From positions 219,281-283,280 of the forward strand of contig JAVZHQ010000001.1 of NCBI GenBank assembly GCA_038998335.1: DNA of 64,000 bases, given 5' to 3'. The notes beneath the pieces are model-generated. The model searched no databases, was not told the origin of the DNA, and worked only from the letters and a program-made list of their open reading frames with translations. Both the position numbers and the translations under genes were made by a program. Each line of letters starts with the position of its first letter. Positions within the stretch are counted from its first letter, which is position 1. Source of the DNA: Candidatus Aenigmatarchaeota archaeon. Lineage in GTDB: Archaea; Aenigmatarchaeota; Aenigmatarchaeia; CG10238-14; SCSR01. Below, piece after piece: positions 1,935 through 62,090 of this stretch.

Positions 1935-2555
1935 TTGATGAAAGGATTATTTATAGTGTTCGAAGGAATTACCGGCTCTGGTAAAAAAACCCACATAAAA
2001 CTTTTAGTAGAAAAACTGAAAGAAAAGGGGAAAGAAGTTACTGTAATTTCTTTTCCTAATTATGAAAGTGAAATAGCAAGATTTACAAAAAGAGCTGATT
2101 TAGACGCTTACACTCAATCTTTACTTTTTGCTGCTGATAGAAGTCTTTACCAGGAAAGGATTAAAGCTTTACTTGAAAAAGGAAACGTAATTCTTTGCGA
2201 TAGATATTGTTACAGTAACTTTGCCTATCAAGCTGCTAAAGGCTTACCTTTAGGATGGCTTAAAGAAATAGAAAAACATACCATTAAGCCTGATATTGTT
2301 TTTTTGATTGATGTGCCAGTTGAAATTAGCATGAACAGAGTTAAACAGTTAAGCATTGAAGATTTCACTAAAAAGGAAATACTTGAAAGGTTGGAAAGGG
2401 AAAAAGACTTTCTGGAAAAAATAAGGGAAATTTACTTGAGTTTAGCTGTAACTGATAAAGAAACTAAATGGTTTGTTATTAATGGTTCAGAAGATATTTC
2501 TGTTAATCATGAAAAAATTTGGAAAAAGGTAAAAGAAGAACTTAAAATTGAGTAG
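1935..2555 (+). CDS. tmk: thymidylate kinase
   Basis: N-terminal P-loop 'FIVFEGITGSGKKT' and overall length (206 aa) typical of dTMP kinase. Confidence 0.8.
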   Translation: MMKGLFIVFEGITGSGKKTHIKLLVEKLKEKGKEVTVISFPNYESEIARFTKRADLDAYTQSLLFAADRSLYQERIKALLEKGNVILCDRYCYSNFAYQAAKGLPLGWLKEIEKHTIKPDIVFLIDVPVEISMNRVKQLSIEDFTKKEILERLEREKDFLEKIREIYLSLAVTDKETKWFVINGSEDISVNHEKIWKKVKEELKIE

Positions 2556-3359: not shown

Positions 3360-3434
3360 GCCCCCTTCGTCTAGTCCGGCTAAGGATACGAGCCTTTCGA
3401 GCTCGGGACACGGGTTCAAATCCCGTAGGGGGCA
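3360..3434 (+). tRNA. tRNA-Glu (anticodon UUC)
   Basis: Acceptor gccccct/agggggc, anticodon stem cgagc/gctcg, loop ctTTCga, T-loop ttcaaat. Confidence 0.85.
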
Positions 3435-9738: not shown

Positions 9739-9824
9739 GCAGGGGTCGCCTAGCCTGGTCAAGGGCGCAGGCCTGAGGCGCCTGTGGCTTAGTGCCTTCC
9801 TGGGTTCAAATCCCAGCCCCTGCA
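9739..9824 (+). tRNA. tRNA-Leu (anticodon GAG)
   Basis: Type II tRNA with long variable arm; acceptor gcagggg/cccctgc, anticodon stem caggc/gcctg, loop ctGAGgc. Confidence 0.85.
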
Positions 9825-22193: not shown

Positions 22194-22211
22194 AAATAAA
22201 TTATTAGAAAG

Positions 22212-22297
22212 CCCTGGTAGCTCAGTTGGTTAGAGCGCATAGTTTAGCGTAAGCTTGGTAAGCATGAGGTCCCGGGTTCAAGTCCCGGCCAGGGCTT
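22212..22297 (+). tRNA. tRNA-Thr (anticodon GGU) with a 12-nt intron inside the anticodon stem (22242-22253)
   Basis: Acceptor gccctgg/ccagggc, D-arm gctc-agttggtta-gagc, T-arm ccggg-ttcaagt-cccgg; removing agtttagcgtaa gives a perfect 5-bp anticodon stem catgc/gcatg with loop ttGGTaa. Confidence 0.6.
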
Positions 22298-26222: not shown

Positions 26223-29200
26223 TTATTCTCTCCTCCTCAAATCCTCCAAAATTCTTTTTTCAGTTCTTGCAACTATTTCTCTTACTTTCTTTATTGCATC
26301 GATATTAACTGAAATGCTTGAAATTCCACACTCAACTAAAAACTCAACCATCTCTGGAATATTGCTTGGGGCTTCGCCACAAATTGAACTTTCCACATTA
26401 TACCTATTACAAGTTTTTATTGTTTCTTTTATTAATCTTAATACTGCAGGGTGCATTTCCGAGTAAAGGTTTAATAACTTTGCGTTATTTCTATCTACGC
26501 CTAAGGTAAGCATGGTTAAATCATTAGAGCCAATAGAAGCAAATGCTATTCCTTCTTTACAAAATTCTTCTATGGTTAAAGCACAAGAAGGAACTTCGAC
26601 CATTATGCCAAGCTTACAGCTTTTTGGCAGTCTAACTTCCAAAGCAATTTCTTTTGCTTTCCTGAATTCCTCAACAGAAATTATAAAAGGAAGCATGATA
26701 TGAACATTATCCAAACCTTCTTCATGTAAAGTTTTGATAGCTTCAAACTCTGCTTTGAGTATCTCAGGCTCATCTAAACTTCTTCTTATACCATGCCATC
26801 CAAGCATTGGGTTGTCTTCTTTTGGTTCTGTTTCACCCCCTTCTAGATGTCTTAGCTCATCTGTTCTAGCGTCTAAGGTTCTTACCCATACAGGCTTGGG
26901 ATAAAATGCTTTTGCTATTGGTCTTATACCATCAAGAAGAATTTGAATGTACTCTTCTTTTCTCCCTTCCCTAACAAGTTTTGCAGGGTGTTTCCCTGAC
27001 TTAAGTATCATATGCTCGATTCTTAACAAGCCAACTCCATCAACTTTTTTTGCTATTTCTTCCACACCCTCTGGAAAAACAAGATTAACTTTTATTTGAG
27101 TAATGGTTGGCTTTATCTCTTCTTCCTCTTCTTCTGGAGCTACGATTTCTGGTGTCTCTACCTGAATTATTCCAGGATAAATCAAACCACGATAAGCATC
27201 GACAGTAACTTCTTGTCCATCTTTTAAAACTTTTGTTGCAGCTAAGGTTCCTACTACACAAGGAATTCTCATTTCTCTTGAAACTATTGCCGCATGACAG
27301 TTTGAAACTAATAGAGGAGTGTATTTTTTGGTAAACACAACATAATTTTTATTAACTTCTTCTTCCGTATCAACTTCAAAGTTAAACACTTCTGTTTTAA
27401 ATCTTTCACCAACTTCTTTAACTCTTAACATACTTAGGCTTGAGTTAAGTATTCTTTCGATTTCTTCTTTTTCTCTTCCTTCAAGCAGAGGTAAAATTCT
27501 TTCTCTAATTTTATTTCTATCGATTAAGAGGTTTTTATTCAAATAAGGCTTTATTTTTCCTTTCCAGTTTGCTTTATCTTCCAAACCTTCAAGAACTTGT
27601 TTAGCCGCAAAGAATTTGCTTCCCTTTTTCCTTTCGTCAAAATTTGCTTTAATTCTTTTACATTTTTCCAAAATTTCTTTCACTTTTTCTCCTATTTGAA
27701 CGTTACATATTTCTCTATTTTTTGTTATTTTGGGGATAATTCCTAGCTTTAAACAAGTTATTACTATCCCCCTTAGTAGGTTTTTGTCCGAAACATAAAT
27801 TTGAATTCTATTTTTAGAAATTGTACCATCCCCATCGATAACTCCTGCAAGAAAAGCTAAAGAAGTAGCTTCATCTAAGAGCAAGCACCAAGAAGCTAAG
27901 TGTTGATAGATCTTTTCTAGAATCAAAGCAGGATAAAGTCTGTAAGAAATATAATCACTTACAGTTCCGGTAACCTCTTTTCCTCTTATTTGTGTGTGAG
28001 TTATTTTCTCTTTTTGGCTAAATTCGTAACCAAAAATTTCTTTGAAATAATCTCTAACTGCAGTAATAAACTCAATTTTTGACTCTTCCTCTTTTTGAGT
28101 AAATATCACACAACCTCTTCTTAAGCCTGTCTTACCCTTAAAAATTTTCCAGTAACCGTCAGAAAAAATGCTTCCTACTAAATATCCAAGTTTTTCGTTA
28201 GAAATCTTACATTCAGAATCAGGCAGGCCAAAAGGTACACAAATAGCTAGTTTTTTACTTAAAATTTCTTGAAGTTCTTTTTTAATTAATTCTCTTTTTT
28301 CATAAGTGAAAATTTTATGGTCTGGAGTTATTCTTATGGAATTATCTTTAATCTTTCCGGTTTGTGAAACAGAAACTTCTACAGTTTGGGCAATTCTTCT
28401 AAAGGCTCTTTTAATTCTTCTCCAAATAGGTTGATTTCTTAAGCAGTCAAAAGAAAGAATGTAAACCTTTTCCTTATTCATAACTTTTTCATAGAGTTCT
28501 TCTGCAGTAACGAAACCTTTTGGCGTTAGAAGAAGAGTATCTCCTGCTATGCAGGTTTGTCCTCCGGAATCAGTTATTATAGCTGAACACTTGCTCATAG
28601 TAGGAACCAAATCAGGAGAAGTCATTGTCGTAACTAAAATATCTCCCTTTTCAACTTTATCTATATCCTTTAGGTCTAAAACAATTTTAACAACCCCTGA
28701 AGCTATCCCAGGCGAAACCCCCAAACCCTTAAGAATAGGTTCACCAACAACTTGTATTTCTTCTACTTTTCCTATGGTTGTTATCGCTCTTGTTTGAACT
28801 ATATATATTCTGTTTCTCTCTATGGCAAACTCAATGTCCTGAGGTTTACCGTAATGGTTTTCAAGTATTACTCCGTAATGAGCAAGTTTTGCTATTTCTT
28901 CTTCCGTTAAAATTTGTTTTCCTTTTTTATCTCTTGGAACAGGAATCTCTTCTGTTTTATCAGTAGCTAAATCTCTTACTCGCATAATTTCTTTTAAACC
29001 AATTTTTTTCTCGAGAAGTTTGCCATCTTTTGAAACTATATAAATATCAGGAGTAACTCTACCAGAAACAAGGGTTTCGCCTAAACCCCAACAAGCTTCT
29101 ATAACTATTTTATCTTCCCCAGTTGCAGGGTTAACCGTGAACATTACTCCAGCCTTTTCACTATTAACCATTTTTTGAATAACAACAGCAATGCTAGCAT

Positions 29201-29753
29201 GCCTAAACCCTTGTTTTGCTCTGTAAAAAATGGCTCTAGGCTCATACAAGCTTGCAAAACATTCCTTAACAGCTTGCAAAAGCTCTTTATGTCCTTTAAC
29301 GTTTAAGAAAGAAGCTTGTTGGCCAGCAAAACTTGCTGTTGGCAAATCTTCAGCAGTAGCAGAACTCCTAACTGCAACCAAAGCTAAGTCTCTCCCAGAT
29401 TTTATTATTTCTAGTTCTTTTCCAACTTCGCTATAAGAAAGAGTTTCGTAAGCTTCTATAATTTCATTTTTAATAGTTGCAGGATACTCTTGTGAAAGAA
29501 TAAGCTCTTTTATTTTTTGGGAAGTCTCAAGAAGTTGAGTAGTATTGTCAACATCACACTCTTTTATCAAATTATCTATTAAATCTTTAATTTTGTTAAT
29601 TTCTATAAATTTTTCAAAGGCATTCGTTGTTATTACAAACCCTGGAGGAACAGGAAGTCCAAGCCTTGTCATTTCTCCTAGGTTTGCACCTTTACCTCCT
29701 GCTATACTTAAGGAATCTCTTGAAAGCTCATCAAGCCATTTGATATATTCCAT
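26223..29753 (-). CDS. ppsA: phosphoenolpyruvate synthase, intein-containing
   Basis: N-terminal ATP-grasp region, phospho-His motif 'ITDSGGQT|...|CHAAIVSRE' interrupted by 418 aa, C-terminal PEP-utilising domain; 1176 aa versus ~760-800 aa for intein-free PpsA. Confidence 0.9.
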   Translation of the reverse strand: MEYIKWLDELSRDSLSIAGGKGANLGEMTRLGLPVPPGFVITTNAFEKFIEINKIKDLIDNLIKECDVDNTTQLLETSQKIKELILSQEYPATIKNEIIEAYETLSYSEVGKELEIIKSGRDLALVAVRSSATAEDLPTASFAGQQASFLNVKGHKELLQAVKECFASLYEPRAIFYRAKQGFRHASIAVVIQKMVNSEKAGVMFTVNPATGEDKIVIEACWGLGETLVSGRVTPDIYIVSKDGKLLEKKIGLKEIMRVRDLATDKTEEIPVPRDKKGKQILTEEEIAKLAHYGVILENHYGKPQDIEFAIERNRIYIVQTRAITTIGKVEEIQVVGEPILKGLGVSPGIASGVVKIVLDLKDIDKVEKGDILVTTMTSPDLVPTMSKCSAIITDSGGQTCIAGDTLLLTPKGFVTAEELYEKVMNKEKVYILSFDCLRNQPIWRRIKRAFRRIAQTVEVSVSQTGKIKDNSIRITPDHKIFTYEKRELIKKELQEILSKKLAICVPFGLPDSECKISNEKLGYLVGSIFSDGYWKIFKGKTGLRRGCVIFTQKEEESKIEFITAVRDYFKEIFGYEFSQKEKITHTQIRGKEVTGTVSDYISYRLYPALILEKIYQHLASWCLLLDEATSLAFLAGVIDGDGTISKNRIQIYVSDKNLLRGIVITCLKLGIIPKITKNREICNVQIGEKVKEILEKCKRIKANFDERKKGSKFFAAKQVLEGLEDKANWKGKIKPYLNKNLLIDRNKIRERILPLLEGREKEEIERILNSSLSMLRVKEVGERFKTEVFNFEVDTEEEVNKNYVVFTKKYTPLLVSNCHAAIVSREMRIPCVVGTLAATKVLKDGQEVTVDAYRGLIYPGIIQVETPEIVAPEEEEEEIKPTITQIKVNLVFPEGVEEIAKKVDGVGLLRIEHMILKSGKHPAKLVREGRKEEYIQILLDGIRPIAKAFYPKPVWVRTLDARTDELRHLEGGETEPKEDNPMLGWHGIRRSLDEPEILKAEFEAIKTLHEEGLDNVHIMLPFIISVEEFRKAKEIALEVRLPKSCKLGIMVEVPSCALTIEEFCKEGIAFASIGSNDLTMLTLGVDRNNAKLLNLYSEMHPAVLRLIKETIKTCNRYNVESSICGEAPSNIPEMVEFLVECGISSISVNIDAIKKVREIVARTEKRILEDLRRRE
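27300..28553 (-). mobile_element. intein with LAGLIDADG homing-endonuclease domain inside ppsA
   Basis: Starts 'CIAGDTLLL' (Cys1), ends '...TPLLVSN' followed by extein Cys; LAGLIDADG blocks 'LGYLVGSIFSDGYW' and 'LAFLAGVIDGDGTI'; sits between T and CH of the conserved GG-x-TCHAAI active-site motif. Confidence 0.8.
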
Positions 29754-61945: not shown

Positions 61946-62090
61946 CGCCGAGGCTGGGATTTGAACCCAGAAGGGGCAAAGCCCCACCAGCTTTCTCAAC
62001 TCACCTCCGACTCATCATTAGTCAGAGTCAAGCCATTTTATCATTGAAAGACTCAAGGCTGGCGCGTTAGCCAGGTTCCGCCACCTCGGC
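61946..62090 (-). tRNA. tRNA-Ser (anticodon UGA) with ~59-nt intron in the anticodon loop
   Basis: Read on minus strand: acceptor gccgagg/cctcggc, discriminator G, anticodon stem ccagc/gctgg, loop ctTGA..., long variable arm tggggctttgcccc, T-arm tgggttcaaatccca; ~59 nt inserted 3' of the anticodon (about 61993-62052). Confidence 0.7.

Follow-up and report, generated by a model that had tools for sequence, protein, structure and literature searches.

A tRNA-Thr(GGU) gene of an Aenigmatarchaeota-like archaeon with a probable 12-nt intron between positions 29 and 30, predicted to be spliced as a relaxed bulge-helix-loop substrate

In the 64-kb stretch of DNA analysed here (the window), an otherwise regular tRNA gene downstream of pyrH carries an anticodon arm of 23 nt, where the tRNA model expects 11 nt. 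This raises the question of whether the surplus nucleotides form an intron, where exactly such an intron would lie, and how it could be recognised by the archaeal splicing machinery. The original prediction, that the locus encodes a tRNA-Thr(GGU) with canonical acceptor, D and T arms, holds both by comparison with Rfam (RF00005, 52.4 bits, E 2e-8, gathering threshold 29, model positions 1–71 of 71) and by direct reading of the parts. The gene comprises 86 nt of the forward strand and begins 17 nt past the pyrH stop codon, at 22211–22296; the coordinates first given, 22212–22297 with an insert at 22242–22253, were one too high, and the insert occupies 22241–22252. Its 5′ exon (22211–22240, tRNA positions 1–29) holds the acceptor 5′ strand GCCCUGG (22211–22217), UA at positions 8–9, a D arm with stem GCUC/GAGC and loop AGUUGGUUA, in which the G18G19 pair is canonical, G26, and C27 A28 U29 (22238–22240). 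The 12-nt intron AGUUUAGCGUAA (insert AGTTTAGCGTAA) follows. In the 3′ exon (22253–22296, positions 30–73) are G30 C31, the anticodon loop UUGGUAA with U33, the anticodon GGU (22257–22259) and A37, the anticodon stem 3′ strand GCAUG, the variable loop AGGUC, a T arm with stem CCGGG/CCCGG and loop UUCAAGU, the acceptor 3′ strand CCAGGGC, which pairs with its 5′ counterpart, and discriminator U73. The acceptor, D and T stems and the T loop are all canonical, and CCA is unencoded.

To locate the insert, each run of 12 consecutive nucleotides lying between the D and T arms was removed in turn and the resulting anticodon arm scored. Removal after position 29 is the sole solution with 5/5 Watson-Crick pairs, giving the stem CAUGC/GCAUG and the loop UUGGUAA, and neighbouring deletions leave at most 4/5. 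This exhaustive scan thus recovers the insertion point, stem and loop originally proposed. The predicted spliced product has a 7-nt loop, U33, GGU and a purine at position 37, as expected of tRNA-Thr(GGU), and intron-less tRNA-Thr(GGU) genes with the same first 20 nt are present in three metagenome loci (L005, L019 and L022). Covariance models had been suggested as a further arbiter. The Rfam model does support a tRNA, but it leaves the 23-nt arm unaligned and gives no intron position; it cannot adjudicate between placements, and in one relative (L002) the insert is assigned to the variable region at the cost of mismatches.

The gene's surroundings identify its host. The upstream pyrH encodes an archaeal-type UMP kinase (TIGR02076, 242 bits), and the opposite-strand gene that follows the tRNA belongs to the geranylgeranyl reductase family (TIGR02032, 191 bits; its best match, the DGGGPL reductase NF041080, scores 410 bits, below the 580-bit cutoff). 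Nearby genes encode the alpha subunit of a formate dehydrogenase and a PEP synthase (26223–29753, reverse strand, 1176 aa), which is interrupted at roughly residues 415–798 by an intein that has a LAGLIDADG homing-endonuclease domain. By PyrH, the closest public genomes are Candidatus Aenigmatarchaeota MAGs (94% and 83% identity), followed by ‘uncultured archaeon’ MAGs (68% and 57%), and a 12-kb contig of run SRR27170999 encodes the identical PyrH protein. Because of the TIGR02076 pyrH, the geranylgeranyl reductase and the nearest genomes, the host is archaeal and, judged by these sequence matches, is a DPANN (Aenigmatarchaeota-like) archaeon.

Two of the five tRNA genes in the window are interrupted. 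Those for Ile(GAU) (1319–1393), Glu(UUC) (3360–3434) and Leu(GAG) (9739–9824), all on the forward strand, lack introns, and their G+C content of 55–66%, compared with 32.7% for the window, may fit a thermophile. The fifth, a class II tRNA-Ser(UGA) on the reverse strand (61946–62090), was missed by ARAGORN and by the Rfam gathering-mode filters and scores 42.3 bits in E-value mode. It has a 59-nt intron at 37/38 with a bulge-helix-bulge (BHB) helix CUUG/UGAG (4/4 pairs) and a 3′ bulge AA|A. This intron is laid out in full as an archaeal C/D box sRNA: AUGAUAA at nt 8, a 12-nt spacer, CUGA at nt 27, a 3-nt spacer, AUGAUGA at nt 34, a second 12-nt spacer and UUGA at nt 53. The layout resembles that of the guide RNA in the Haloferax tRNA-Trp intron; a scan for methylation targets of its C/D-like guides, which allowed G:U pairs and was too permissive, gave none that was specific.

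The archaeal splicing endonuclease acts on a 4-bp helix flanked by two 3-nt bulges, with nucleotides 34 and 35 within the helix in canonical introns (PMC4090602). Since the enzyme needs this helix and these bulges, each cut falls 2 nt 3′ of a helix strand. In the tRNA-Thr precursor, such a helix (H) is found between exon nucleotides G24 C25 G26 C27 (22235–22238) and intron nucleotides 7–10, GCGU (22247–22250): all four pairs of GCGC/GCGU form, and both cuts lie 2 nt 3′ of the strands, at AU|A and AA|G. Among shuffled introns, 1.0% match the same geometry. The 5′ splice site (22240/22241) falls in an 8-nt hairpin loop, AU|AGUUUA (22239–22246), which replaces the 5′ bulge of a strict BHB, and the 3′ splice site (22252/22253) in a 3-nt bulge, AA|G (22251–22253). 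On the far side of this bulge, U20a A21 G22 A23 (22231–22234) oppose C31 U32 U33 G34 (22254–22257) as an outer helix h′, in the register 23:31, 22:32, 21:33, 20a:34. It has 3/4 pairs, with the A23-C31 mismatch adjoining the 3′ bulge and then G:U, A:U and U:G, and is weaker still in the orthologue of L028.

The junction therefore departs from the strict hBHBh′ (3-4-3) motif, since its 5′ site lies in an 8-nt terminal loop without an outer helix h, and corresponds to the relaxed HBh′, or bulge-helix-loop, motif, with a 3′ bulge between H and an h′ that is weak in tRNA-Thr. The original prediction had held that a relaxed BHB substrate would be needed and had proposed folding the junctions as a check; the folding agrees, the relaxation being that the 5′ site sits in a hairpin loop and not in a bulge. 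The mirror-image arrangement, with intron nucleotides 2–5 paired to 3′ exon nucleotides 31–34, makes 0/4 pairs in the window and was discarded.

Formation of H has a price, as half of the D stem must melt. We compared energies for the window precursor with the acceptor and T arms fixed, at 37–80 °C. At 37 °C, the fold with helix H has −31.8 kcal/mol, the cloverleaf with the intron looped out −26.5 kcal/mol, and the unconstrained minimum free energy (MFE) fold −33.9 kcal/mol. Over the whole range, the H fold is 4.5–6 kcal/mol better than the looped-out cloverleaf and within 0.2–2.1 kcal/mol of the MFE, and the ranking and the gap of about 5 kcal/mol are unchanged at 55, 70 and 80 °C, so that the alternative fold is energetically plausible. 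In L002, the MFE structure itself includes helix H. The MFE structure of the window, in which intron GUUUA pairs with U36–C40, is absent in L001, L007 and L028 and lacks BHB geometry, and was rejected.

We infer cleavage, ligation, the enzymes involved and the need for an EndA of broad specificity as follows. The precursor would form the 4-bp H from intron nucleotides 7–10, GCGU, and from G24–C27, drawn from the D-stem 3′ strand together with G26 and C27. This would put the 3′ splice site in the bulge AA|G30, with the weak h′ (20a–23 with 31–34) on its other side, and the 5′ splice site inside the 8-nt terminal loop of H, after its second nucleotide. EndA would cut 2 nt 3′ of each strand of H, a ligase of the RtcB type would join U29 to G30, and the spliced RNA would refold into a cloverleaf with the stem CAUGC/GCAUG. 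A search by tblastn with an M. jannaschii EndA sequence, together with a scan for the catalytic-core motif, was made, and neither EndA nor RtcB genes were found in the window and related loci, which total 250 kb and are too small a part of any genome for the absence to carry weight.

We scanned metagenomes for the first 20 nt of the tRNA, with the T-loop motif allowed downstream; 27 loci were obtained. The pyrH-tRNA arrangement recurs in L001, L002, L010, L004, L013 and L007, and the 29/30 insert is conserved in at least six distinct relatives downstream of pyrH, from Aenigmatarchaeota MAGs and metagenomes, with RF00005 scores of 52–55 bits for the orthologues. The insert of the window, AGUUUAGCGUAA (12 nt), corresponds to AGUAGCGUAA (10 nt) in L001, AACUUAGCGGAA (12 nt) in L004, AACUUAGCGAAA (12 nt) in L013, AUAUUAGCGAAA (12 nt) in L007 and ACAAUUUUGCGUAA (14 nt) in L028 and L030. 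Across these lengths of 10–14 nt, the first A and the 3′ end GCG-N-AA are invariant. The exons of the window and of the L004 group differ at 2 nt, despite PyrH identities down to 64–68%. Near-invariant exons around an insert that varies and yet keeps its first A and GCG-N-AA point to a spliced intron and not to gene decay. An origin by tandem duplication of GUAAGC, which is repeated in the window, was rejected because L004, L007 and L013 have GGAAGC or GAAAGC.

The same design is not confined to tRNA-Thr. Nine 29/30 introns could be tabulated: those of tRNA-Thr in the window, L001, L028, L004, L007 and L013, that of tRNA-Val in L014, and those of tRNA-Gly(GCC), 12 nt each, in L009 and L024. 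In all nine, C25 pairs with G. The pair at position 26 is G:C in Thr and Val and A:U in Gly, a compensatory change on both sides, and position 27 has C:G or U:G. Eight of the nine 3′ bulges read AA|N, and that of tRNA-Gly in L024 reads AU|G. At position 24, adjoining the 3′ bulge, only the window, L001 and L028 have a G:U pair; the other six have a purine-purine mismatch, so that H is effectively 3 bp there. Helix h′ keeps its register and has 4/4 pairs in the Val gene of L014 and the Gly gene of L009 and 3/4 in the Gly gene of L024, and the loop at the 5′ site ranges from 6 to 10 nt among orthologues.

In tRNA-Val(GAC), the 11-nt 29/30 intron, AGGAUGCGGAA, is present in L014 (8085–8166), L017 (8165–8246) and L018 (7554–7635) and absent from L016 (2389–2459), where the gene equals that of L014 minus the predicted intron, exactly. 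These presence and absence alleles show that an insert of this kind is a precisely removable unit. The 3′ end of the Val intron, GCGGAA, is the same as that of the tRNA-Thr intron of L004. With the intron-less allele matching the predicted spliced product, and with a design that is conserved and covaries in relatives, the intron reading of the original prediction gains support beyond that first offered.

Mini-introns at other positions obey the same rule, in that a 4-bp helix followed by 2 nt singles out one boundary in every other class found. At 40/41, tRNA-Thr(GGU) genes carry introns of 12–13 nt in L002 (2056–2141), L010 (6835–6920), L016 (2270–2354), L017 (8046–8130) and L018 (7670–7754), in the 3′ strand of the anticodon stem, with H GUAA/UUAC (4/4; the alternative boundary 41/42 gives 2/4) and BHB geometry with sites GC|A and AA|A. 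The site faces 29/30 across the stem, at one and the same helical step, and 40/41 is missing from the list of known positions in PMC4090602, a list that ends in ‘etc.’. At 38/39, tRNA-Thr(CGU) of L012, L015, L024 and L025 has H UCGU/AUGA (4/4), and at 37/38, tRNA-Thr(GGU) of L014 and L029 has H with 3/4 pairs. A tRNA-Arg(UCG) gene on L018, read from the sequence, has a canonical intron of 12 nt with H 4/4. A tRNA-Thr(CGU)-like gene in another metagenome (L008, region 2083–2155, forward strand) has 11 nt inserted in its anticodon loop; whichever way the insert is removed, position 33 remains C instead of the U that tRNAs usually have.

An archaeal host, a cloverleaf restored by removal of the insert, and a 4-bp helix with cuts 2 nt 3′ of its strands, as found here, are the marks of a BHB-type intron, and we consider it very probable, on the sequence comparisons above, that the locus is a functional tRNA-Thr(GGU) gene whose 12-nt intron at 29/30 is spliced by proteins and cut as a relaxed HBh′, or bulge-helix-loop, substrate. 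ARAGORN describes the locus otherwise. Its default and intron modes both report an 88-nt ‘tRNA-?’ whose loop has 8 nt and whose anticodon, UUAG, has four bases, and the intron mode, proposed earlier as a check, does not recover the 29/30 intron, as the program can place introns in the anticodon loop only. That the model comes back in every mode, intron mode included, speaks for an intron-less 88-nt tRNA with a long variable region, comparable to a frameshift or stop suppressor. Such a tRNA would need A opposed to A in its anticodon stem and a variable region of 17 unpaired nucleotides, and would ignore CAUGC-UUGGUAA-GCAUG, which is perfect after one deletion. The reading is also not conserved, the orthologues being called ‘anticodon ag’ (L001), tRNA-Arg(gcg) (L004) and tRNA-Thr(ggt) (L002). 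It is already contradicted by these comparative data, and we give it hardly any credence; the four-base anticodon is an artefact, inconsistent between orthologues and forced by loop-only intron placement. Very unlikely, too, is that the 12 nt stay in the RNA, whether in a degenerate or pseudo tRNA or in one that works with an enlarged anticodon arm. The window is 64 kb of a genome in which a second tRNA-Thr(GGU) may be found elsewhere, which leaves room for this reading, but the exons are canonical and have 2 differences across lineages whose PyrH proteins are 64–68% identical, the insert varies while keeping GCG-N-AA, and the neighbouring Val gene of relatives shows an exact polymorphism for the presence of its intron.

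A closer rival accepts splicing at 29/30 and has the enzyme see another fold, either a cloverleaf with a 12-nt bulge or the hairpin AGC-GUAA-GCU. The D stem would then stay unmelted, several relatives have an H of no more than 3 canonical pairs, and a GNRA-like loop (GUAA, GGAA or GAAA) on an AGC/GCU stem spans the 3′ site in all Thr 29/30 introns, the outer A:U pair being replaced by U:G in L028. Against the bulged cloverleaf stands its disadvantage of 4.5–6 kcal/mol relative to the H fold at every temperature tried. The hairpin is impossible in tRNA-Val, where C would oppose C, and it sets the cut at the junction of loop and stem and not 2 nt from a helix. Nor would a structure specific to one position explain why cuts 2 nt after a 4-bp helix hold at four mini-intron positions. 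We therefore judge recognition through another fold to be improbable, and the GNRA hairpin, which fails in tRNA-Val and cannot be reconciled with the cleavage geometry, to be a minor rival and not the main motif, although it may form transiently.

With the relaxed bulge-helix-loop reading preferred, the distribution of mini-introns among relatives can be considered. Intron position tracks the tRNA ‘body’ and not host relatedness. L002 and L010 belong to the PyrH clade of the window (83–87% identity), yet the tRNA in their pyrH slot carries the 40/41 intron, and its exons differ from the window gene at 8 positions and by 1 nt from the tRNA-Thr gene of L016–L018, which adjoins tRNA-Val and not pyrH. 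These counts led us to reject the sliding of an intron across the stem of one orthologous gene; by exon sequence, replacement of the whole gene is the more likely explanation of the L002 and L010 tRNA than an intron crossing the stem. We also dismissed the idea that the introns at 29/30 (AGUUUAGCGUAA) and 40/41 (AGAUAGCUUACAA) are homologous, or related as reverse complements, because the resemblance is gone in L016–L018 (AGAAAAUUACAA).

Two further comparisons show how little divergence may separate different intron sites. The tRNA-Gly(GCC) genes of L024 (766–851) and L025 (5381–5466) lie in loci that are collinear and 89–90% identical over 3 kb, and their exons differ at one D-loop base, yet each has a 12-nt intron, at 29/30 in the former and 37/38 in the latter, and the two intron sequences are unrelated, which points to very recent intron turnover. 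Likewise, L014 has near-identical Val-Thr flanks to L017 and L018, but its Thr intron is at 37/38 and theirs at 40/41. From these alignments, mini-introns appear to turn over fast among close relatives, being found at 29/30, 37/38 or 40/41 or not at all. Rapid gain, loss and relocation of tRNA introns have been described in Thermoproteales and in a population of Caldiarchaeum, where tRNA-Thr(GGU) is affected as well (PMC4033280; PMC3293823). As in the intron transposition of Thermoproteales (Fujishima et al.), close genomes here differ in the presence and position of tRNA introns; the relocating elements here, in contrast, have 10–14 nt, too short for clear sequence homology.

It is conceivable, if rather unlikely, that the 10–14-nt introns of these hot-spring DPANN archaea are one actively relocating family, gained, lost and moved among 29/30, 37/38, 38/39 and 40/41 at about 10% nucleotide divergence. 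The proposed family would have a fixed design, in which A and a short loop precede four nucleotides complementary to exon bases −6 to −3, with AA at the end, and the Gly genes of L024 and L025 are the clearest case for it; no remnants of mobile elements were seen beside the mini-introns here. If true, relocation would imply a new insertion mechanism that makes endonuclease-competent mini-introns de novo, for which reverse splicing followed by reverse transcription, or templated repair, would be candidates.

Archaeal non-canonical tRNA introns with relaxed motifs have reportedly been catalogued by Marck and Grosjean in 2003 and by Sugahara et al. in 2008. Position 29/30 itself is a listed archaeal non-canonical site (PMC4090602), and the claim that the position is non-canonical thus stands while the site is less unusual than was implied. 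The tRNA-Thr intron is like known relaxed HBh′ and hBH introns (PMC4090602) in lying outside 37/38 at a listed position, with a 4-bp helix and one proper 3-nt bulge, and also in that its other splice site has no bulge of its own, exon sequence takes part in the motif, and the mature fold is partly opened. It differs from them in its host, which belongs to DPANN and not to Crenarchaeota, Thaumarchaeota or Nanoarchaeota, in its size, the 10–14 nt found here being at the very short end, and in a stereotyped plan of A, 3–7 loop nucleotides, a 4-nt H strand and AA. The tRNA-Ala genes of Caldivirga maquilingensis are split at 29/30 (PMC4090602); the breakpoint is the same and a BHB-like junction geometry is presumably shared, but those are trans-spliced split genes, whereas here a contiguous gene has a 12-nt cis intron.

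Relaxed hBH, HBh′ and bulge-helix-loop motifs are cut only by (αβ)2 or ε2 endonucleases or by enzymes with specific loops, and the 13-nt 59/60 intron of pre-tRNA-Cys(GCA) from ARMAN-2 (DPANN; Ca. Micrarchaeum), a relaxed hBH/bulge-helix-loop substrate, is cleaved in vitro by ε2 (PMC3239211). That intron shares with the present one a DPANN host, mini size, a bulge-helix-loop and a non-canonical position; it lies in the T loop and not in the anticodon stem, and its enzyme and missing element were established by experiment, whereas the motif here is predicted from sequence. Loop-bearing EndAs are described from many DPANN lineages, in which disrupted tRNAs are numerous and tRNA predictions incomplete (PMC5829648). 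In the literature, we found no description of tRNA introns specifically in Aenigmatarchaeota. With 29/30 and relaxed motifs already documented in Archaea, DPANN included, the tRNA-Thr intron is an ordinary addition to a known class.

The current understanding of archaeal tRNA splicing is thus unchanged by these findings, which extend relaxed, non-canonical introns to Aenigmatarchaeota-like archaea and predict that the endonuclease of this lineage has broad specificity, of the (αβ)2, ε2 or loop-bearing α4 kind. For annotation, genomes of the lineage will seem to lack tRNA-Thr(GGU) unless non-canonical mini-introns are modelled, because ARAGORN miscalls the type or isotype of the gene and Rfam aligns it in part; training of the BHB models in tRNAscan-SE 2.0 drew on Crenarchaeota/Euryarchaeota and on Thaumarchaeota (PMC8450103). 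The related contigs, with their different sites and their presence and absence alleles, provide a compact natural data set on the turnover of tRNA introns.
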